Origin: Candidatus Saccharimonadales bacterium
GTDB taxonomy: Bacteria > Patescibacteriota > Saccharimonadia > Saccharimonadales > 2-12-FULL-41-12
Reading direction: 5' to 3'
Assembly (NCBI GenBank): GCA_041906505.1
Contig: JAYRJB010000004.1
Location: 6,045-70,044 of the forward strand
DNA: 64,000 bases
Shown here piece by piece: positions 3,101 to 58,175 of the stretch. The position numbers were made by a program, and so were the translations under genes. The number at the start of each line of letters is the position of its first letter. Position 1 is the stretch's first letter. Below the pieces are notes generated by a model. The model searched no databases and had not been told where the DNA came from. It saw nothing but the letters and a program-made list of their open reading frames with translations.

Positions 3101-4924
3101 AACATTGTTTAGTTTCCATGACTGCAGTTCACCGTTATTGTTACCGTTGATGGTAACTGTCGAATTGGTGTTATCTATTTGGAAAATATTGGAGTCCTGT
3201 GTGAAAGCGAGGCCTGCCGGTGCAGAAACAAGCGTGACGCCGTCTACGTAAATGTTGTCACTTGAGCCAGTATCGGTTTGTTTGATGTAGAAGTTCGAGG
3301 CATTACCGATGGTACCACCAGTGGTAAATGTACAACTAAACTGCGTCCAGGTCGTAGTAATGCCAACAGAGGTAATGTCTGGGCTCGTAGTACAGTTTGA
3401 ATCTGCACCATTGTCTGCACGACCGACTGCAAATGCTGTTGAGCTACCGGTATCTTTTTTTGCCCAAAACGACAGCGAGTATTGGGTGTTCGGCAAAAAT
3501 GGATAGCGGTATTCGGCGCCATTCCCGGCAGCAGCGCTAGTACCAGTCACAACCTTGAGCGAATAGGCGCCAAAGTTGGCGTGCTCAGTGCTTGCAGCGA
3601 TGGAGTTACCAACTGGGGTGGTTGCGCTCTTGAGTGCCCAGCCAGACGTATTGCCATTCTCGAAGCTCGGATTGTTGACCATGTTCGTAATGGCGCTATT
3701 GGCAACACTCAAGTACGCGGTATCCGCGTAAATCGTCTTGCCAGTAGTGCTTGTGTCTCTTAAAAATACATAGTCGTTCACGGTGGTAGTCGCCCCCGTT
3801 GTAAACCGACAACTAAACTCTTGCATGCTTGTGGTAACAGACTGAGCCGCCAAACAAGTTGTGGTCGCGCCGTTGATATTGGTGCCGAGGTCAAACGTTG
3901 CGAAGCCTGCCGAAGCAGAAACCCAGACACTGAATGTGTAGGTAGTACTAGGAGCAAATTCGTACGTGTACCTCGCGCCTTGATTGGCAGTACCCGCAAC
4001 AGTAGTGATGCGCAAATTCTGAGCACCATCGTGGCTGGCAGCCGTGTTGTCGGCAGTGAAGGTCGTCTCCGCGCCTTGCAAGCGTGTCCAGCCAGTGGTG
4101 CCCGACTCAAAGTTAGAGTTTGTAATGAGATTCGCATTACCGCCGGTGTTAATGCTCATAATTGTGTTGCCCGAGGGGTCTTGGACCGAGAATCCAGAGG
4201 CCGAATTGGCCGACGGTCGAACAATATTGCTGCTGCCAGTGAATAGACTGCCATTGGACGCGGTTACTAAGCCGCTGTTATTGATTGCAAATACGTCAAT
4301 CCCATTCTTTTGGAGTTGCAAAATGTTGGCTGTTGCCCCTGTTTTGTTGACAAAAATCGAGGGGTTTGTTGCTGAACTATCGACTTGAACCCCTTGCGCA
4401 AGTCGGACAAAGTTTGCACTAGTTAAACCATCGAGTGATTTGGAGTTAAGCGCATATGGCGTAGCGCTGAACCTGGTAAAGGGGCTCATTTCTCCATCCC
4501 AGCTTGGCGTGCCAGTTCCACCGATGTTTACGGACAGCCACAACGTATCTTGATTCCAGTCTACGCTGCTTCCAAAGGGTGTGACACTACCCATATATAT
4601 ACTAAAATAACCATTCTTTACTAGTACTTTATTGCCACCTGTCCTTGTCTCTGTCCATTTTAGGGTTTCGTCACCGCCACCCAAGATTCCGTTACCATCT
4701 TGGTAGATCTTGAACTCGACGTTATAGCTACCATCTGGCACCACCGCACCGGTGTTTGTAAGAAGTCGCCCTTGATAGTTAATCTGTTCGTTGATGCCGA
4801 CAGCTGCATTTGCTTTAGAGAAGTGAAAAGCGCCTACCACCCCTGTTATCACCACAATAACACACGCAAGCATAAGGGCTCTTACTCGAAACCTCGAACC
4901 TTTGACTACTGTTGTTGGTTGCAT
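170..4924 (-). CDS. giant secreted/surface multidomain protein (CBM-like modules, 6-blade Kelch propeller, coiled coil, C-terminal lectin-like domain)
   Basis: 1584-aa uninterrupted ORF. N-terminal basic stretch plus hydrophobic helix LMLACVIVVITGVVGAF followed by ANAA. Repeated modules open with NSNFESGTTGW and NPSFENGNTSGW, as in CBM4/9-type sugar-binding modules. Six VANGYxYxxGGxDGTN...DGSxGxW Kelch-like repeats. LSSLQAKLDAEQ coiled-coil segment. The last ~100 aa (VEVRFDAPYQQAPVVSVAV...GFKIQL...FSWVAL) follow an H-type-lectin-like pattern. Confidence 0.85.
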   Translation of the reverse strand: MQPTTVVKGSRFRVRALMLACVIVVITGVVGAFHFSKANAAVGINEQINYQGRLLTNTGAVVPDGSYNVEFKIYQDGNGILGGGDETLKWTETRTGGNKVLVKNGYFSIYMGSVTPFGSSVDWNQDTLWLSVNIGGTGTPSWDGEMSPFTRFSATPYALNSKSLDGLTSANFVRLAQGVQVDSSATNPSIFVNKTGATANILQLQKNGIDVFAINNSGLVTASNGSLFTGSSNIVRPSANSASGFSVQDPSGNTIMSINTGGNANLITNSNFESGTTGWTRLQGAETTFTADNTAASHDGAQNLRITTVAGTANQGARYTYEFAPSTTYTFSVWVSASAGFATFDLGTNINGATTTCLAAQSVTTSMQEFSCRFTTGATTTVNDYVFLRDTSTTGKTIYADTAYLSVANSAITNMVNNPSFENGNTSGWALKSATTPVGNSIAASTEHANFGAYSLKVVTGTSAAAGNGAEYRYPFLPNTQYSLSFWAKKDTGSSTAFAVGRADNGADSNCTTSPDITSVGITTTWTQFSCTFTTGGTIGNASNFYIKQTDTGSSDNIYVDGVTLVSAPAGLAFTQDSNIFQIDNTNSTVTINGNNNGELQSWKLNNVPLGATAPNDTTRVVNREDVATVIANGYMYAIGGFDGTNTVNSVFYAKVNADGSVGAWQCQGTAVATSCGTSSSPINANNIPGVKRYAAATVANGYIYVVGGFDGTNAQSSVYFARLNSDGSTGIWQTNNVPLTTARVAPSAVVANGMMYVIGGCTDNTATCGTPANTVYYGKINADGSIQGVTTTNAWDTNANNLTNARGMGTAVYANGSIYYLGGRNSTAQNTVYYATINNDYSLGPFNSGTSLPQIRQEHATVVANGYLYVVGGSDGTNTTNTVLYSKLNGDGTIGAWNSSQNYLPANREASGYAIANGYVYILGGFDGTNRVPTLYYSSMPRTLVGGALDLVGLSGQNIGDFGGGGSLTAGNTRVVGDLRVDGYADFNNGISVDSAINLNAVSAALGQTVFNINNLNSNSIFNIRHMSTNFGSLITGGAFVGKNSYYGEEFNAVQAANCTHTSTTNVRNARGDYGTHNTCAAGAGELNVNSTMGLAAGANTCTYASQANVPNGIERITATSGVPANNSASCMETLGGTATNSSNKIYAAANLPIGTYKVRPGLVGTTAAKVYVGFGDNNTAISGMPANGIYFSNCTTYSTTAPTCSSNQWVGMVSSGSAQIGANMVCPGTISTTQYAYLRIEVRQAGVGAGDVHFYADVDVSNGVNEVECVNATTGVGGISGVTLPAVAMSHYHSAVYNTNVVGTQTLDIDFVRIWQDDNAPAQPDNQIVENTPQGTPFNGVVPLSIDEGADANLPSDAFVDFNSATSVDHVFDNDIYVRGTVYADRIKANQIEGLEIFTNQLSSLQAKLDAEQANGNEEPPPGSTNTTNVAVINVTNAVDLSSVTIQNGSVVFDFKVNGGLTVGGPSEFRGNTLFAGLVTFVEKTVFNKDVQFQGRATFNADSGGYAVIKPGQREVEVRFDAPYQQAPVVSVAVKNGQFVQYAYTDLTPDGFKIQLSEVATQQIEFSWVALSVNDAKTSQGP
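2100..3060 (-). other. Kelch-type beta-propeller region (six blades) within the giant surface protein
   Basis: Six consecutive units of about 50 aa: ANGYMYAIGGFDGTN, ANGYIYVVGGFDGTN, ANGMMYVIGGCTDN, ANGSIYYLGGRNST, ANGYLYVVGGSDGTN, ANGYVYILGGFDGTN. Each is followed by a (K/R)(L/I/V)NxDGSxGxW-type motif. Confidence 0.8.
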
Positions 4925-5037: not shown

Positions 5038-6192
5038 CTAACGTTTGTGGCGAAGACTCGGTGTGATGCGAGCAGCAACAATTCGCTCACCAAACCAAAA
5101 ACTTATCGTCATCAAAACCGCGATACCAAACGCTGGCCAAACCGAGTCTAAAATTTGTGCAACCCTGCTGCTGACATAACACTCTGAGCTAAAATAATCG
5201 GCACTACCCGGCACACATTTTGGCGAGATCACACCGGCCACCCCTGTATAGTCACGGGTTACGCTGACAATTGTTTGGATAGTTGTTTTGTTGTTCAGCC
5301 CGTCGCTAATAGTAATCGACACCACGTGTTGCCCTGATTTTGTGAACCTGTGCAACGCCGATTGTTCACCACCGTTCGTCAAAGAAAATAGGTCGTTTTG
5401 GGAGCCATCATCCCAGTTTATCGAAACAGCGTAAGGCGCAATCCCTCCGATTATTGTGTATTTGAGGGTTCCAACTTTATTAATCGGGTAGGCTTTTCTG
5501 GAAAGCGAGGTCGTTACAATCAGCGGCTCGTAATTCGGTGGGTTATTTTGGTTTTGGCTGTTCGGATCATTCGGGTTCGTTGCTTGCGTGCCGGTTCCGT
5601 CAACTTTCAGCTTTTTTGGAATTTCGTAAAATATCGTTAACACGCTTGAGTCTGGAGCATACTGAGCATCAGCATCACTCATTTTTGCAATAAAGTTATT
5701 TTGTCCTGGCCTAAGGCTAACCGTAAGTTGAAATTCCCCACTATTCCCACACAACGTCGCGCCCGCAAAAGTTGAATAACGAAATAGTTCAACATACAGC
5801 CCCGACTGACATGTACCTCTGATAGTTATGGTGTTCGTGCCGACCTTGCTGTCGTTTGAAGGTTCAATAAATGTGGCCGGAAATTGTGGAACAGGGCCTT
5901 TCATGCGGCCCGTGAGGTTTATGCTACCCGACACTGTTTGGTCAGCTTGCGCCGCGTTGCTCGCAAAGAAAAGGGTGGCGCCGGTGAGCACAAGGATGAA
6001 GTACAAGACCGTGTATGACGTAAACGCTATGCCAATTCGGCGACCAGTGTGTTTGTGATGCGCCACCCGAACACCGTACTTCTTCGTAGACTCAACCTGC
6101 TTAACGGCGTGAGTCTTTGCCTTCGATATTGTGCGACTAGTCCTCTTTTTTAGTTTGGCCATTGCTGTGCTTCTTTTTTGATCTTTTGACAA
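5038..6192 (-). CDS. bitopic membrane protein with Ig-like and PKD-like extracytoplasmic domains
   Basis: 384-aa ORF; an alternative start MAKLKK at 6162 is also possible. Basic N-terminus, TM helix FTSYTVLYFILVLTGATLFFA, an Asn/Pro-rich linker and a PKD-like motif (INWDDGSQ...HRFTKSGQHVVSITISDG). C-terminal TM helix VWPAFGIAVLMTISFWF. Overlaps the stop of the upstream gene. Confidence 0.7.
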   Translation of the reverse strand: MSKDQKRSTAMAKLKKRTSRTISKAKTHAVKQVESTKKYGVRVAHHKHTGRRIGIAFTSYTVLYFILVLTGATLFFASNAAQADQTVSGSINLTGRMKGPVPQFPATFIEPSNDSKVGTNTITIRGTCQSGLYVELFRYSTFAGATLCGNSGEFQLTVSLRPGQNNFIAKMSDADAQYAPDSSVLTIFYEIPKKLKVDGTGTQATNPNDPNSQNQNNPPNYEPLIVTTSLSRKAYPINKVGTLKYTIIGGIAPYAVSINWDDGSQNDLFSLTNGGEQSALHRFTKSGQHVVSITISDGLNNKTTIQTIVSVTRDYTGVAGVISPKCVPGSADYFSSECYVSSRVAQILDSVWPAFGIAVLMTISFWFGERIVAARITPSLRHKR

Positions 6193-11126: not shown

Positions 11127-11636
11127 TTACTGCTTTCTTTTTGGTTGCGTAAACTTCTCGTGAACTGTTGGGTAATTAAAAATTTCCGACTGACTAAACC
11201 AATGAGCAATTTCGGCCTTTGCTTCATCAACATCACCAGACGCATGAATAATATTCGCGATCCCTGCCCCTTGAGAATCGGCGTGATCAAAGCTGACATG
11301 GGCATAGTCCCCACGAATTGTGCCCGGTAATGCGCTTTTGGGTTCCGTGGTACCGACCATTTTCCGCACAATCGAAACAGCGCCAACCCCCTCTAACACG
11401 ACTGCGATCACTGGCCCTTCTTGCATGAGCTCGAGCGTCACATCAAAGGCTTTCTGGCCACGACGCGATATCATTTTGCTGATTGTTTCATAGTGATGAT
11501 GGTAGTGCTCGGCACTTGGTTGCAGCATCTTCGCGGCGACAATCTTGAGTCCTGCTCTCTCAAAACGCGTAATAATTTCACCAACAAATCCACGCTGCAG
11601 GCTATCAGGCTTCAAAATAATCAACGTCCGTTCCAT
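11127..11636 (-). CDS. ndk: nucleoside diphosphate kinase
   Basis: MERTLIILKPD..., GEIITRFERAGLKIVAAKM, and active-site NIIHASGD. Start set at the MERTL ATG (11636). Confidence 0.9.
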   Translation of the reverse strand: MERTLIILKPDSLQRGFVGEIITRFERAGLKIVAAKMLQPSAEHYHHHYETISKMISRRGQKAFDVTLELMQEGPVIAVVLEGVGAVSIVRKMVGTTEPKSALPGTIRGDYAHVSFDHADSQGAGIANIIHASGDVDEAKAEIAHWFSQSEIFNYPTVHEKFTQPKRKQ

Positions 11637-11712
11637 CAAACATCCTTCATACAATTACTCTCTTTGTTATTACAGTAAATTGTACCAAACAACACCTTAT
11701 CCGTCACGATTC

Positions 11713-11750
11713 AGTAGCACTTCTGTGACGATCGTCTCAAAAGTGCTACT
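11713..11750. repeat. 38-bp imperfect palindrome, copy 1 (operator, recombination-site or hairpin candidate)
   Basis: AGTAGCACTTctGtGACGATCGTCtCaaAAGTGCTACT followed by ATTTGTG. It ends 8 nt before the ATG at 11759. Confidence 0.85.
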
Positions 11751-11758
11751 ATTTGTGC

Positions 11759-12238
11759 ATGAATCGAGGTAATAAAACATCTACTCAATACATCTTGGAG
11801 GCACTTATTCCCTATTCCAAGGCCAACCTGCAGCTGGCTTTTAAGCCCGCTAAATTTTTCGCAGAACTCGAAAGACTCGACCAAGTCAAAGTGCAGACCG
11901 CAAAAACGTCATTCTACCGGGCCGTGAGGAAAGGTTTGGTTGAACTCGACGACCAAGGAATACCGCGCCTTACCGAAAAGGGCAACCGACGTGTGCTTCC
12001 CTTTTCGGCGCCCAAACTCAAGGGAGCTCACCTCATGATTGTCTTTGATATACCAGAAGCAGATCGCTGGAAGCGCGGACATTTGCGAGCCCTGCTGCAC
12101 GAACTATCGTTCAAACAAGTGCAGAAAAGTGTCTGGACGAGCCCCTATGATCATCGAGAACTCTTAAAAATGGAAATAAAGGAGTTGGGACTAGAGAAAG
12201 AAATACGCCTGTTTGAGGCGAGAGATTTATTAAACTAG
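11759..12238 (+). CDS. small wHTH protein with a Cas2-like/PaaX-C-like ferredoxin-fold C-terminus (putative regulator)
   Basis: The N-terminal half is helical (FYRAVRKGLVELDDQGIPRLTEKG). The C-terminal MIVFDIPEADRWKRGHLRALLHELSFKQVQKSVWTS matches the Cas2/PaaX-type pattern. ATG at 11759; the ORF track opens at TTG 11753. Confidence 0.55.
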   Translation: MNRGNKTSTQYILEALIPYSKANLQLAFKPAKFFAELERLDQVKVQTAKTSFYRAVRKGLVELDDQGIPRLTEKGNRRVLPFSAPKLKGAHLMIVFDIPEADRWKRGHLRALLHELSFKQVQKSVWTSPYDHRELLKMEIKELGLEKEIRLFEARDLLN

Positions 12239-12274
12239 TAGCACTTTTTGGACGATCGTCCAAAAAGTGCTACT
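12237..12274. repeat. 38-bp perfect palindrome, copy 2
   Basis: AGTAGCACTTTTTGGACGA|TCGTCCAAAAAGTGCTACT followed by TATTTGTG. It overlaps the stop codon of the 11759..12238 gene and lies 12-45 nt upstream of the candidate xer starts. Confidence 0.9.
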
Positions 12275-12319
12275 TATTTGTGAGGGGTGTTGGGGTGCGA
12301 GTGTCGTACAATGTGGGGT

Positions 12320-13249
12320 ATGGGCAAAGAAACACCGCATATGCAAGCGCTGCTGACAGATTTTTTAGAGTACCTCGAGATCGAACAAAATCGATCGCAA
12401 AAAACCATCGCCAACTATGACCACTACCTTACTCGCTTGATTGATTACGCTGGCGACATAACGATCGCCGAGATTACGCCAGAACTTATTAGAAAATGGC
12501 GGCTGTGGCTTAATCGACTTGGCACCAACAGTAGCGATGAACTGCAAAAAACAACTCAAAATTATCACTTGATTGCACTGCGTAGCTTTTTGAAATATTG
12601 TGCCAAACGCGATATCCCAGCCCTCAGCGCCGACAAGATTGAACTCGCCAGAACCAAAAGAAAACAGGTTACCTTCTTGTCTGGTGAAGAAATGAAGCGC
12701 TTGCTTGAGCAGCCAGACGACAGCCAAGTTGCAGGCTTAAGAGACCGGGCAATTTTAGAGCTACTGTACTCGTCGGGGCTACGCGTCTCGGAGCTCGTTG
12801 GTCTCAACCGTGACCATATTAATCTCAAGCGGTTGGAGTTCATGGTTCGAGGAAAGGGCCAAAAGGACCGTCCGGTTTTTGTCAGCCCGCAGGCGGCTCA
12901 GTGGGTAGAACACTATTTAGAAGCCCGCAAAGATAACAGCCCTGCCCTGTTTGCTCGTATTGGCGGCCAAAAAATCGCTGATAGATCTGGGGACCATCTG
13001 CGCCTTACGGCTCGTTCGGTGCAACGAATGGTGGCTCGTTACGCACTACTGGCGGGCATCACCAAACACGTCAGTCCCCACACCCTGCGACACAGTTTTG
13101 CAACCGATCTGTTGATGAACGGCGCTGATCTAAGAAGTGTGCAGGCCATGTTGGGCCACAGCAACATTGCAACGACCCAAATCTATACTCACGTCACCGA
13201 TCCACACCTAAAAGCCGTACACGAGAAGTTTCACCGAAAAAACGACTAG
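12320..13249 (+). CDS. tyrosine site-specific recombinase, XerC/XerD family
   Basis: N-terminal SAM-like core-binding domain (FLEYLEIEQNRSQKTIANY). Catalytic region includes GLRVSEL (catalytic Arg) and HTLRHSFATDLLMNGADLRSVQAMLGHSNIATTQIYTHV. The start is ambiguous among GTG 12287, ATG 12311, ATG 12320 and ATG 12341. TACAAT at 12307-12312 could make the 12320 start leaderless. Confidence 0.88.
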   Translation: MGKETPHMQALLTDFLEYLEIEQNRSQKTIANYDHYLTRLIDYAGDITIAEITPELIRKWRLWLNRLGTNSSDELQKTTQNYHLIALRSFLKYCAKRDIPALSADKIELARTKRKQVTFLSGEEMKRLLEQPDDSQVAGLRDRAILELLYSSGLRVSELVGLNRDHINLKRLEFMVRGKGQKDRPVFVSPQAAQWVEHYLEARKDNSPALFARIGGQKIADRSGDHLRLTARSVQRMVARYALLAGITKHVSPHTLRHSFATDLLMNGADLRSVQAMLGHSNIATTQIYTHVTDPHLKAVHEKFHRKND

Positions 13250-56790: not shown

Positions 56791-57147
56791 ATGCCAATAA
56801 TTAAGTCTGCAAAAAAGCGAGTTCGTACTGCCGAAAAGGCAGCTATTCGCAATGTAAAGACCAAGCGAAATGTAAAAACTGCAGTTAAAACATTTCAAAA
56901 AGCCGCAACTTCGGGAAGCAAACAAGCTAGCCAAGCTCTTCGTGATGCACAAAGTGCAATCGACATCGCCTATAAGAAGAATGTGTTGCACAAAAACAAG
57001 GCTGCACGGAAAAAAAGCCAGCTCGCAAAGGTCGCTAAAGCCAACGCAACGAACAAGACCGCCAAAGTTGTAACCAAAAAAACAGCCGCCAAAAAAACCG
57101 TTGCAAAGAAACCTGCAGCAAAAAAGAAGCCCGCTACAAAAAAATAG
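56791..57147 (+). CDS. rpsT: 30S ribosomal protein S20 with a Lys/Ala-rich C-terminal tail
   Basis: MPIIKSAKKRVRTAEKAAIRN. The last ~30 aa are AKK/PAAKK repeats. Confidence 0.9.
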   Translation: MPIIKSAKKRVRTAEKAAIRNVKTKRNVKTAVKTFQKAATSGSKQASQALRDAQSAIDIAYKKNVLHKNKAARKKSQLAKVAKANATNKTAKVVTKKTAAKKTVAKKPAAKKKPATKK

Positions 57148-57215
57148 CCTTTGTTTCTAACCCGTCACAAACCGTCCTCTTCATGCCGTTTGTGACACCT
57201 TAACACCTTAATGTA

Positions 57216-57260
57216 TGCGACTTTTTTACGCGATCGCGTATTTTTGTCGCATTATTTTGT
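57216..57260 (+). terminator. hairpin terminator candidate between convergent rpsT and holA
   Basis: TGCGAC-TTTTTT-ACGCGATCGCGT-ATTTTT-GTCGCA followed by TTATTTTGT. A second hairpin, GTCACAAAC-N15-GTTTGTGAC, lies at 57164-57196. Confidence 0.4.
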
Positions 57261-58175
57261 CAGAGATACAATAAAAAAGCGCAACGCATCATCAAAATTG
57301 ATGGTCTTCGTCTTGCTGTCTCGATCTATGTTCCGCAAGAGCGTAAGTGTGTCGCTGACTTTCTGAGCACCCATTTTTTGGGCAATAGACTGACTTTTTT
57401 GTACAACATACGGGTTTAAGCTGGCATCCTTTGCAATGCGTTCTGCCCGTAGTTCTTTTGGCGCACGTGCAACAAGCGACACAATATGCATTTGCCAGAC
57501 CAGCATTGCAAAAATAGCTTGTGGTTCAACTTTTTGAGCACGTTGCGACGCATATATTTCTATTGCACGATCTGTGCGACCCGAAAACGCATTATCAATA
57601 AGGTTAAAAATTGTAGAGCTGGGAGTTTCTTCAGTAAGATTCTCGATATTTTGCTTAGAAATTTCTGGATTGTATGAAACAAGCTTATCAGTTTCGAGCG
57701 CAACTTTTGTCTGATTTAAACCCACTCTCTCGACAAGGTAGCGGGCATTGGCTGGGCCTATTTTGCCGCCTTTCTTGGAAACAGTGCGTTGCACCCACGT
57801 GACTAGAGCAGCTTGGTCAAGTTCATTGTATTCACAAAAACCGGCTTGTTGCTTAAGGAGCTTATAGTAACTTCCCCGTTTATCAATTTTTGGTTCTACA
57901 ATTATTAAGTCTGTGGTGTCGTTGAGTTTGCGAAAGAGTATCTCTGCATCATCTGCTGCAGAAGGAACTAAACCCAGACCAGAAACAACAACCATTTTTT
58001 TGGTTGTTAAGAAAGGAAGTGATTCTGCCGCACCAACGACCTGCTCAAAACCCACTTCGGACGCATCAATTCTCTCGAGTCCAAGTTCGCCATGATCTTT
58101 CACAAACCCACCAACAATGTTGTCGAGCTCGGCTTTCAAACCAAACCAATTTGTCCCCGTAAGTACTTTAATCAT
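57252..58175 (-). CDS. holA: DNA polymerase III delta subunit
   Basis: 307 aa. Length and helical C-terminal pattern are typical of HolA, and it sits beside other replication and repair genes. Assignment from overall pattern only. Confidence 0.7.
   Translation of the reverse strand: MIKVLTGTNWFGLKAELDNIVGGFVKDHGELGLERIDASEVGFEQVVGAAESLPFLTTKKMVVVSGLGLVPSAADDAEILFRKLNDTTDLIIVEPKIDKRGSYYKLLKQQAGFCEYNELDQAALVTWVQRTVSKKGGKIGPANARYLVERVGLNQTKVALETDKLVSYNPEISKQNIENLTEETPSSTIFNLIDNAFSGRTDRAIEIYASQRAQKVEPQAIFAMLVWQMHIVSLVARAPKELRAERIAKDASLNPYVVQKSQSIAQKMGAQKVSDTLTLLRNIDRDSKTKTINFDDALRFFIVSLTK

Follow-up and report, generated by a model that had tools for sequence, protein, structure and literature searches.

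Paired 38-bp palindromes bracket a truncated PaaX-like gene in Saccharibacteria and are predicted to be its own operators

Introduction

PaaX, the repressor of phenylacetate catabolism in E. coli and Pseudomonas, recognizes in E. coli a wide inverted repeat, TGATTC-N27-GAATCA (39 bp), and represses its own Px promoter by occluding RNA polymerase, while its C-terminal domain binds the inducer phenylacetyl-CoA (PMC9493321). In this work we analyzed a gene encoding a shortened relative of PaaX, here called mini-PaaX, together with the two 38-bp palindromes between which it lies. The gene is found in a 64,000-nt stretch from a Candidatus Saccharimonadales bacterium (assembly GCA_041906505.1, contig JAYRJB010000004.1, positions 6,045 to 70,044), and this whole stretch is referred to below as the window, with position 1 as its first letter. 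An earlier reading of the window from its letters alone (the sequence-only reading) had noticed the palindromes and had offered three explanations for them: operators of the encoded protein, dif- or att-like sites of the adjacent Xer-type recombinase, or hairpins. Judged from the comparison of related loci presented here, the palindromes belong to the bracketed small gene and not to xer. They are probably cognate PaaX-type operators of the mini-PaaX encoded between them, that is, predicted dimer sites that would serve autorepression, with a second such site downstream of the gene.

Mini-PaaX resembles PaaX in the order of its domains, a winged helix followed by a Cas2-like middle domain, and in the wide inverted repeat at its own promoter, which spans 38 bp here and 39 bp in E. 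coli; this second likeness is one of geometry only. In contrast to the 316 amino acids of PaaX, mini-PaaX has 159 and lacks the C-terminal helical domain, and no paa genes are found near it. Additionally, its sites contain an extra conserved 12-bp core that covaries with residues of the Cas2-like domain, each mini-PaaX gene is bracketed by two sites, and the small genomes of the Candidate Phyla Radiation (CPR) carry two to four paralogues of distinct specificity.

Several other described systems share features with this locus. Cas2 is homodimeric and, in the Cas1-Cas2 complex, lies on duplex DNA. The ends of insertion sequences may contain the promoter of the transposase gene. Pairs of operators that act by looping are represented by lambda CI at OL/OR, lac O1/O2 and gal OE/OI. 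Lastly, the dif-type site used by integrative mobile elements exploiting Xer (IMEX) is made up of two 11-bp arms around a 6-8 bp centre, and the cargo of such an element is flanked by two copies of the site (PMC5357621). Each of these systems is compared with mini-PaaX below, at the point where the relevant evidence is given.

Results and Discussion

Two palindromes lie at fixed positions around the mini-PaaX gene

The mini-PaaX gene occupies 11759..12238 on the forward strand and encodes 159 amino acids. The upstream palindrome, copy 1 (11713..11750, AGTAGCACTTCTGTGACGATCGTCTCAAAAGTGCTACT), forms 17 of 19 self-complementary pairs, and the downstream palindrome, copy 2 (12237..12274, AGTAGCACTTTTTGGACGATCGTCCAAAAAGTGCTACT), is perfect, with 19 of 19; neither is assigned to a strand. 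Re-reading of the sequence confirmed the coordinates and letters that the sequence-only reading had given for both copies, as well as its description of copy 2 as perfect and copy 1 as imperfect. The two copies are identical at 33 of 38 positions, and the five mismatches all fall within the A/T-rich spacer that connects the core GACGATCGTC to the outer arms AGTAGCAC. Copy 1 ends 8 nt before the ATG at 11759, with its centre 28 nt before it. The TAG stop codon (12236-12238) contains the start of copy 2, whose centre is 17 nt past the stop. Both copies are followed by (T)ATTTGTG. These placements also agree with the earlier description; the (T)ATTTGTG tail is specific to this locus, the flanks across the family being at background identity. 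With a distance of 524 bp from centre to centre, the palindromes and the gene form a unit of 562 bp that the open reading frame (ORF) nearly fills.

The palindromes stand out from the surrounding DNA. In 100 shuffles of the window the motif did not occur once, and apart from the two copies the 64 kb contain no short-loop inverted repeat of 24 nt or more. Both fold strongly, with energies of -25 to -29 kcal/mol and z values of -4.7 to -10.6. The copies had also been described as lying in the same orientation, a statement that has no meaning for a perfect palindrome such as copy 2. Across the family, neither register is preferred when the two copies of a locus are compared (direct 0.80, inverted 0.80), and their similarity ends at +/-19 from the centre.

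The palindromes accompany the gene across related loci

To place the window in context, we surveyed 80 loci from GTDB species representatives plus metagenome loci, nearly all of them from Saccharibacteria or other Patescibacteria; individual loci are numbered with the prefix L. A strict palindrome was defined as at least 12 of 19 pairs around a CGRYCG-type centre. Such a palindrome is present on both sides of the gene in 57 of the 81 loci with complete flanks, and in most of the remaining loci a direct repeat containing the core is still common to both flanks. The consensus half-site consists of a variable arm followed by C-A-n-W-T-T-T-T-G-Y-C-C-G-R. While the core CG[AG][TC]CG is kept family-wide, the arms are locus-specific, yet within a locus both copies, and both halves of each copy, have matching arms. 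The positions relative to the gene are conserved as well: the upstream centre lies 27-31 nt before the start codon at 35 of 54 loci and the downstream centre 14-25 nt after the stop at 39 of 54. Paired palindromes persist in homologues down to 28-32% identity.

In the close relatives L001-L003 and L006 (83-90% protein identity), ndk, the small gene, xer and both palindromes are all kept. In L003, the four arm half-sites have all switched in concert from AGTAGCAC to AGTAACAC. The homologue at L004/L005, 59% identical, has a rhodanese gene on one side and an ABC transporter on the other; xer is not near, and the gene is bracketed by two copies of the related element TTTTCGTTTT-GTCCGATCGGAC. Indeed, xer is found within 4 kb of the gene in one synteny group only and is absent from that distance at about 75 of the 80 loci. 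The neighbours of family genes are unrelated housekeeping genes (ndk, xer, tRNA synthetases, RecG, Mur ligase and others) in random orientation, and several genomes carry two to four paralogues. Because the same bracket layout recurs in about 80 loci, mostly without xer, we assign the palindromes to the small gene.

Sites away from a family gene are infrequent. Extra palindromes of the family type are rare in the 8-kb flanks, and orphan sites of this architecture number about two in roughly 660 kb of related loci. In the window, exactly two cognate copies exist, so that the earlier statement that there was no other copy holds for cognate sites; a third palindrome with a like architecture and other arms does occur, at 57215..57252 (no strand; ATGCGAC-TTTTTT-ACGCGATCGCGT-ATTTTT-GTCGCAT, 14 of 19 pairs). 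This orphan lies between the convergent genes rpsT (56791-57147, forward strand) and a holA-like gene (57252-58175, reverse strand). It shows the same succession of arm, T-run, core and arm as copies 1 and 2, with different arms, and no family gene was found beside it. It is probably a site cognate to another paralogue, encoded outside the window, or a relic; alternatively, it may be a terminator. Another orphan, GCGAAATAGATTGGACGGCCGTCAAATCTATTTCG (16 of 19 pairs), is seen at 5210-5253 of L007, in the 560-bp gap after ndk. A scan of a metagenome collection for GTAGCACTT-N5-ACGATCGT gave 22 matches, none beside a family gene and none with the second arm; with 17 specified bases chance matches are expectable, and the scan, which did not retrieve the known pattern-bearing relative L001, has no bearing on dispersal.

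Mini-PaaX is a truncated PaaX variant with a Cas2-like domain

The 159-aa protein matches PF20803 PaaX_M, the 'central Cas2-like domain of PaaX', with 55.7 bits against a cut-off of 24 (E 5e-15), and homologues of it are already annotated with PF20803. An AlphaFold2 model (pLDDT 85) shows an N-terminal winged helix of three helices and a beta wing (approximately residues 8-71), for which there is no Pfam match, and a C-terminal Cas2-like ferredoxin fold with the order beta-alpha-beta-beta-alpha-beta (approximately residues 91-154). Foldseek returned E. coli PaaX (8a39) as the best PDB match for the full-length model, and for the C-terminal half many Cas2 chains, with an rmsd of about 3 A over about 74 residues. 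The earlier description of the gene product as a winged helix-turn-helix (wHTH) joined to a Cas2 fold is confirmed by Pfam, the model and Foldseek taken together. The protein ends at residue 159, right after the Cas2-like fold, and the C-terminal domain of PaaX is absent. Because this domain and a paa context are both missing, the family is best classed as a truncated PaaX variant and not as a PaaX orthologue.

The ferredoxin-like fold is shared with Cas2 and VapD, and the motifs FD(I/M)P...R..(F/L)R...L...F...Q.SV(W/Y/F) are common to mini-PaaX and Cas2, type II-A Cas2 being closest. Asp97, invariant in the family, aligns with the catalytic Asp of Cas2 (FDIPE here, FDMP or YDV in Cas2). Unlike Cas2, mini-PaaX scores below the curated Cas2 cut-offs (PF09827, 21.0 against 23.8 bits; TIGR01573, 20.9 against 24.5 bits), its Cas2-like domain is fused to a winged helix, and this domain appears to give base-specific recognition. 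No Cas matches were obtained among the neighbour genes of the loci examined, the rest of the window not having been scanned for cas genes, and no tandem repeat array is present in the 9-15 kb region of the window.

The family is sizeable: in a library clustered at 50% identity, 75 clusters were retrieved at E<=1e-30 and 1296 at E<=1e-10. The signature FDIPE...R..LR...Q.SVW is kept in relatives of 23-36% identity. We found no description of the family, of the bracket architecture or of the residue-base rule reported below in the searchable literature, an absence that is not proof of novelty.

Central bases of the palindromes covary with residues of the Cas2-like domain

To relate protein and site, we compared an alignment of 75 non-redundant family proteins with the consensus half-site of each locus by mutual information. 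This picked out residues of the Cas2-like domain and not of the winged helix. Residue 123, the x of QxSVW in the beta2-beta3 hairpin, is K, R or L at each of the 39 loci with a CGATCG centre and Q or H at each of the 29 with a CGGCCG centre, with zero exceptions; the few mixed centres (CGACCG/CGGTCG) occur with either residue type. The rule holds in the upstream copies alone and in the downstream copies alone. On a neighbour-joining tree built without these columns, residue and centre each undergo at least 15 parsimony changes, and, independent of any tree, both states are found inside four separate synteny groups. Paralogues from JAHWKM01 differ in the same manner, L010 having K with an AT centre and L026 having Q with a GC centre. 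Additionally, a GC centre was predicted for the out-of-sample homologue P0358 (28% identity, QQSVW), and CTTATAGTGACGGCCGTCACTATAAG is found in both of its flanks.

A second position behaves similarly. Core positions 4-6 vary with residue 107, which lies in the second turn of helix alpha1: R accompanies GTC, D accompanies TCA and N or G accompanies xGA (in their core contexts GTCCG, TCACG and xGACG, respectively). The invariant residues R106, R110, Q122 and S124 parallel the invariant CG of the core. In contrast to residues 107 and 123, residue 50 of the recognition helix gave a weak signal against arm positions 15/16 that is confounded by phylogeny. At these specificity-linked positions the window protein has T50 in the recognition helix, G107 in alpha1 of the Cas2-like domain and K123 in the QKSVW hairpin.

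K and Q also often swap between residues 120 and 123 (codons 12116-12118 and 12125-12127 in the window): CGATCG is paired with FKQVQKSVW, and 15 loci combine CGGCCG with FKKVQQSVW. The side chains of residues 120 and 123 may approach the same central base pairs.

This covariation indicates that the encoded protein would bind its own two flanks. An alternative is that the paired palindromes are functionless relics of a duplication or insertion that gene conversion has kept alike. Such conversion between palindromes is plausible, and the copies are indeed alike in either register. However, both copies independently obey the residue-123 rule, their conserved and variable positions coincide, and the pair persists to 28-32% identity at fixed positions relative to start and stop. 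We consider that the palindromes are most improbable as relics.

The geometry of the fold suggests how the site could be read. In the ferredoxin topology, the start of alpha1, the beta2-beta3 turn and the Asp after beta1 lie at one end of the domain, and in Cas2 this Asp sits at the dimer interface. On account of this topology and of the place of the Asp, we infer that a Cas2-like dimer on the dyad would read the core, with the winged helices at the arms. In the proposed arrangement, a symmetric dimer would sit on each 38-bp site, its Cas2-like part reading the 12-bp core, here GAC-CGATCG-GTC, and its two winged helices reaching the outer arms AGTAGCAC, 13-19 bp from the centre.

The upstream palindrome overlaps the predicted promoter of the gene

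Promoter-like elements recur at fixed places in the upstream copies. Hexamers resembling a -10 element (TATAAT, TACAAT, TACTAT, TAGTAT) cluster at +14..+19 from the centre in most of the 58 loci, usually ending 6-7 nt before the start codon, and the same tally in the downstream copies gave only 14 across 70. The family's -35-like element (TTGTCC or GTGACG) occupies -8..-3 from the centre, within the core's left half, and is 16-18 nt upstream of the -10. In the window, the family pattern points to GTGACG at 11725..11730 (forward strand), in the left half of the copy 1 core, as the -35-like hexamer. The -10-like hexamer would be TACTAT at 11747..11752 (forward strand), which straddles the right end of copy 1, 16 nt past the -35-like element and 6 nt before the ATG. 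Copy 1 is thus predicted to hold the gene's own promoter. Because there is no room for a Shine-Dalgarno leader, the mini-PaaX mRNA is probably leaderless.

With the promoter elements placed inside the upstream palindrome, a bound protein would cover the region from -35 to -10, the same steric mode of autorepression as that of PaaX at Px. We propose that the upstream site is built into the leaderless promoter such that binding would repress the gene itself, resulting in negative autoregulation. Binding there may also affect the abutting promoter of ndk (11127..11636, reverse strand), which together with a tRNA-Arg gene lies upstream and divergent. The predicted ndk promoter occupies 11707..11679 on the reverse strand, and its -35 lies 5 nt from the left edge of copy 1.

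Should the operator reading be correct, the Cas2-fold domain, known as a structural or nuclease part of CRISPR adaptation, would here be a base-specific DNA reader that follows a simple rule: K or R for an AT centre, Q for a GC centre, and a second position that tracks the flanking triplet. Small CPR genomes would then carry two to four mutually orthogonal mini-regulators, each locked to two sites around its own gene. This would give access to regulation in bacteria that resist cultivation, and such regulators might supply compact orthogonal repressor-operator pairs.

The downstream palindrome as a boundary or a second operator

A downstream copy is found at 36 of 40 loci with a co-directional next gene and at 33 of 38 with a convergent one. 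Since it is present whatever the orientation of the next gene, it cannot in general be the operator of a downstream promoter. The sequence-only reading had proposed that the wHTH dimer both autoregulates its own gene and controls xer. The first part agrees with the way the palindromes follow the gene, with the promoter overlap and with the covariation. Control of xer as a general rule is not supported, because only one synteny group lies beside xer and the downstream copy is equally frequent when the next gene is convergent.

The strong folding of both copies might instead suggest that the palindromes are mainly RNA or DNA hairpins, copy 2 serving as a terminator or 3'-end stabiliser, copy 1 as a leader hairpin, and gene conversion accounting for their likeness. 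In a loose terminator scan, copy 2 and its tail TATTTGTG qualify (5 T in 8), and the orphan at 57215, located between convergent genes, has a core hairpin followed by ATTTTT. However, 6 or more T among the 10 nt that follow are found in only 16% of downstream copies, and the symmetry places a T-run before and an A-run after the core hairpin on either strand; the downstream copy does not look like a canonical terminator. Ordinary stem-plus-T-run terminators exist elsewhere in this genome. No match to an Rfam family was obtained. Mismatches compatible with G-U pairing are not favoured over others: at non-Watson-Crick positions there is no clear G-U preference, the slight excess in downstream copies at positions 7-9 being explainable by base composition. 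Additionally, the loop, or core, is the most conserved part and covaries with the protein, which a hairpin alone does not explain. Of the two hairpins that had been proposed earlier, the one in a 5' untranslated region does not hold for copy 1, which lies upstream of the predicted leaderless start; the terminator at copy 2 retains the loose scan in its favour and lacks a U-tract across the family. Taken as the main function of the palindromes, hairpin formation seems improbable to us.

Under the operator reading, the downstream copy would most likely act as an orientation-independent boundary, either as a protein roadblock, as a hairpin terminator or as both, and it could also anchor a repression loop of about 520 bp. 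The known looping systems likewise have two cognate operators a few hundred bp apart (524 bp here) that flank the repressor gene or promoter. Unlike in those systems, the second mini-PaaX site falls precisely on the 3' end of the regulator gene in almost all members.

Single-gene inversions and patchy presence of the unit

In four synteny groups, the unit is flipped with respect to both of its conserved neighbours. The comparisons are L017 against L004/L011/L012; L027/L038 against L019/L049; L041/L051/L070 against L047/L060/L071/L073/L074; and L010 against L022. Gene maps reveal a fifth flip, between L007 and the window: a pilin-like gene, xer, ndk, a gene for a 179-aa protein and a rotamase gene retain the same order, and the small gene alone is reversed. 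Such in-place inversions of a single gene, seen here in at least five cases, are unusual and point to recombination between the flanking palindromes. As each flank is palindromic, the pair is a direct and an inverted repeat at once, and because the flanks are symmetric the promoter would be rebuilt after a flip. If the palindromes are operators, the symmetric unit would be independent of orientation and would provide a clean natural case of palindrome-mediated single-gene inversion.

Two further features of L007 were observed in this comparison. The tRNA-Arg(cct) gene (5513-5588) is also inverted relative to ndk and the gene for the 179-aa protein when compared with the window. Low-complexity repeats resembling proline/glycine codons (cctgaacc/gagccag) at 3660-3900 fill the 350-bp spacer from xer to the upstream palindrome.

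The distribution of the unit is patchy. The junction between ndk and xer is occupied in the window, L006, L003, L008, L020 and L007 and is empty in all six other genomes sampled. Protein phylogeny and synteny disagree: the L004 protein, from another locus, is 59% identical to the window protein, and that of L020, from the same locus, is 48% identical.

These observations are the core of the main rival explanation, in which palindrome, gene and palindrome form a selfish, mobile or invertible cassette. The palindromes would be ends bound by the cassette's own protein, much as a transposase binds terminal repeats in which its promoter lies. Either a host recombinase or the Cas2-fold domain, whose fold is that of metal-dependent nucleases, would cut or recombine them, and the symmetry of the sites would make the outcome an inversion or an excision. 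The flips in four synteny groups and in L007, the patchy presence between ndk and xer and the conflict between phylogeny and synteny all fit such a cassette. So do the compact 562-bp unit with an ORF that nearly fills it, the two to four paralogues per genome, the unrelated housekeeping neighbours in random orientation, the existence of solo palindromes and the invariance of Asp97. Insertion sequences offer a parallel, as there too an ORF nearly fills a short unit, a promoter lies in the left end and the encoded protein recognizes the ends, thereby autoregulating its expression (as proposed here for mini-PaaX).

However, unlike for insertion sequences, we saw no multiple identical copies, target-site duplications, known transposase fold or recent movement, and each end of a mini-PaaX unit is itself a full palindrome. 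No near-identical units were found in different contexts, the only identical pair, L030/L032, being collinear over >4.5 kb, and neither a target-site duplication nor flank similarity beyond the palindrome was seen. Within a genome, paralogues share <60% identity and differ in their ends, and synteny survives even deep divergence. The family has no match in PHROGs, only weak Cas2 matches in PADLOC and no relatives in a scan of viral contigs. Additionally, a pair of 38-bp palindromes can invert a segment by ordinary homologous recombination, the flips may be neutral, and Asp97 in D-I-P-E could be a mere helix N-cap. The palindromic REP elements associated with RAYT transposases (REPtrons) are also comparable, in that a small gene is flanked by repeats its product is thought to recognize. 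Unlike those repeats, which are dispersed in tens to hundreds, the cognate sites here number 2 in 64 kb, with about 2 orphans in ~660 kb, and the folds differ (HUH/Y1 against wHTH-Cas2). We therefore rank the cassette below the operator reading and regard it as unlikely, though it deserves to be taken seriously.

A more specific proposal is that the Cas2-fold domain is catalytic on the palindrome core, making each unit a self-contained site-specific module that cuts or inverts DNA. We judge this doubtful to a somewhat greater degree. If it were true, CPR bacteria would possess a minimal selfish or invertible element of a type not previously described, and a free-living Cas2-fold protein with palindromic repeats of about 38 bp would bear on the origin of the association between Cas2 and the CRISPR repeat.

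Several of our own results weigh against the operator reading, which we nevertheless consider the probable one. The combination of housekeeping neighbours, patchy presence and repeated inversions fits a selfish or mobile module as well. Orphan sites at only about 2 per 660 kb leave the benefit to the cell unclear if the main sites are the gene's own flanks. The alignment of the invariant Asp97 with the catalytic Asp of Cas2 leaves room for nuclease activity. Covariation demonstrates coupling and does not show which domain touches which base. For the distant homologue P0338, whose 677-bp contig is too short for a verdict, no site was found in the 68 nt of upstream sequence. Lastly, the spacing of the operators gave no signal of helical phasing at 10.3-11 bp, a difference from the dual-operator looping systems that speaks neither for nor against looping.

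The adjacent Xer recombinase and the ndk-xer junction

The xer gene (12320..13249, forward strand) encodes a Xer-type tyrosine recombinase and is the sole gene of this type in the window, as had been noted earlier. It has a conserved -10 of its own, TACAAT (12307-12312), 7 nt before its ATG, and 32 nt separate the end of copy 2 from this element. Hundreds of homologues at 80-94% identity mark Xer as a well-conserved housekeeping protein.

The position of copy 2 beside xer had led to the suggestion that the palindromes are dif-like or att-like sites of this recombinase, with the small gene as cargo of an IMEX-like element. The small gene does lie beside xer in the window and five related loci, and the inner 28 bp of the palindrome can be parsed as 11 + 6 + 11 bp. 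Cargo between two copies of a site next to a Xer gene is also the layout that an IMEX leaves (PMC5357621). Additionally, the window Xer scores above the cut-off of a model for single-recombinase XerA.

Nevertheless, paired palindromes occur without xer within 4 kb at about 75 of 80 loci, so the motif does not track xer beyond its one synteny group. Among genomes with 76-94% identical Xer, the arms and even the central hexamers differ (Xer being 76-83% identical where the unit lies at the ndk-xer junction), and the central bases covary with a residue of the small protein and not with Xer. The centre is perfectly symmetric, which would leave a dif site directionless, and the conserved element reaches 38 bp. 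GC skew has no clear sign switch at 12 kb. A further comparison comes from six sampled genomes whose Xer is 80-89% identical (L108-L113), in which ndk and xer are adjacent and divergent, 46-190 bp apart. An empty site, with a single copy and no intervening gene, had been considered in the sequence-only reading; six gene-free junctions do exist, but 0 of 6 keep a single copy, and neither the small gene nor a CGRYCG palindrome is present in any of them, whereas an IMEX target would keep dif. In view of these differences, we give almost no credence to the dif or att explanation. For annotation, the lesson of the operator reading would be that a palindrome beside xer is not necessarily dif.

The -10 block of xer, TGTCGTACAAT, located 6-7 nt before the xer ATG, is kept in the window (12302-12312) and in 4 of the 6 empty junctions, suggesting that xer, too, is leaderless. 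With 239.8 bits against a cut-off of 220, the window Xer passes the NCBIfam archaeal XerA/integron-integrase model, and it falls below the cut-offs for XerC and XerD; it is probably a single-recombinase Xer system. The cumulative GC skew of the window stays level over about 1-16 kb and declines steadily from there to 64 kb, a change of slope with no clear sign switch near ndk-xer (8-16 kb).

Lastly, two types of ndk hold the same place beside xer in close relatives, one of 168-169 aa and one of 154-155 aa, about 41-43% identical to each other. The instances compared were those of the window (11127-11636), L003 (192-656), L007 (4623-5087), L109 and L111-L113. L003 carries the short type though its small gene is 83% identical to that of the window. 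This suggests gene replacement or recombination in the ndk region.

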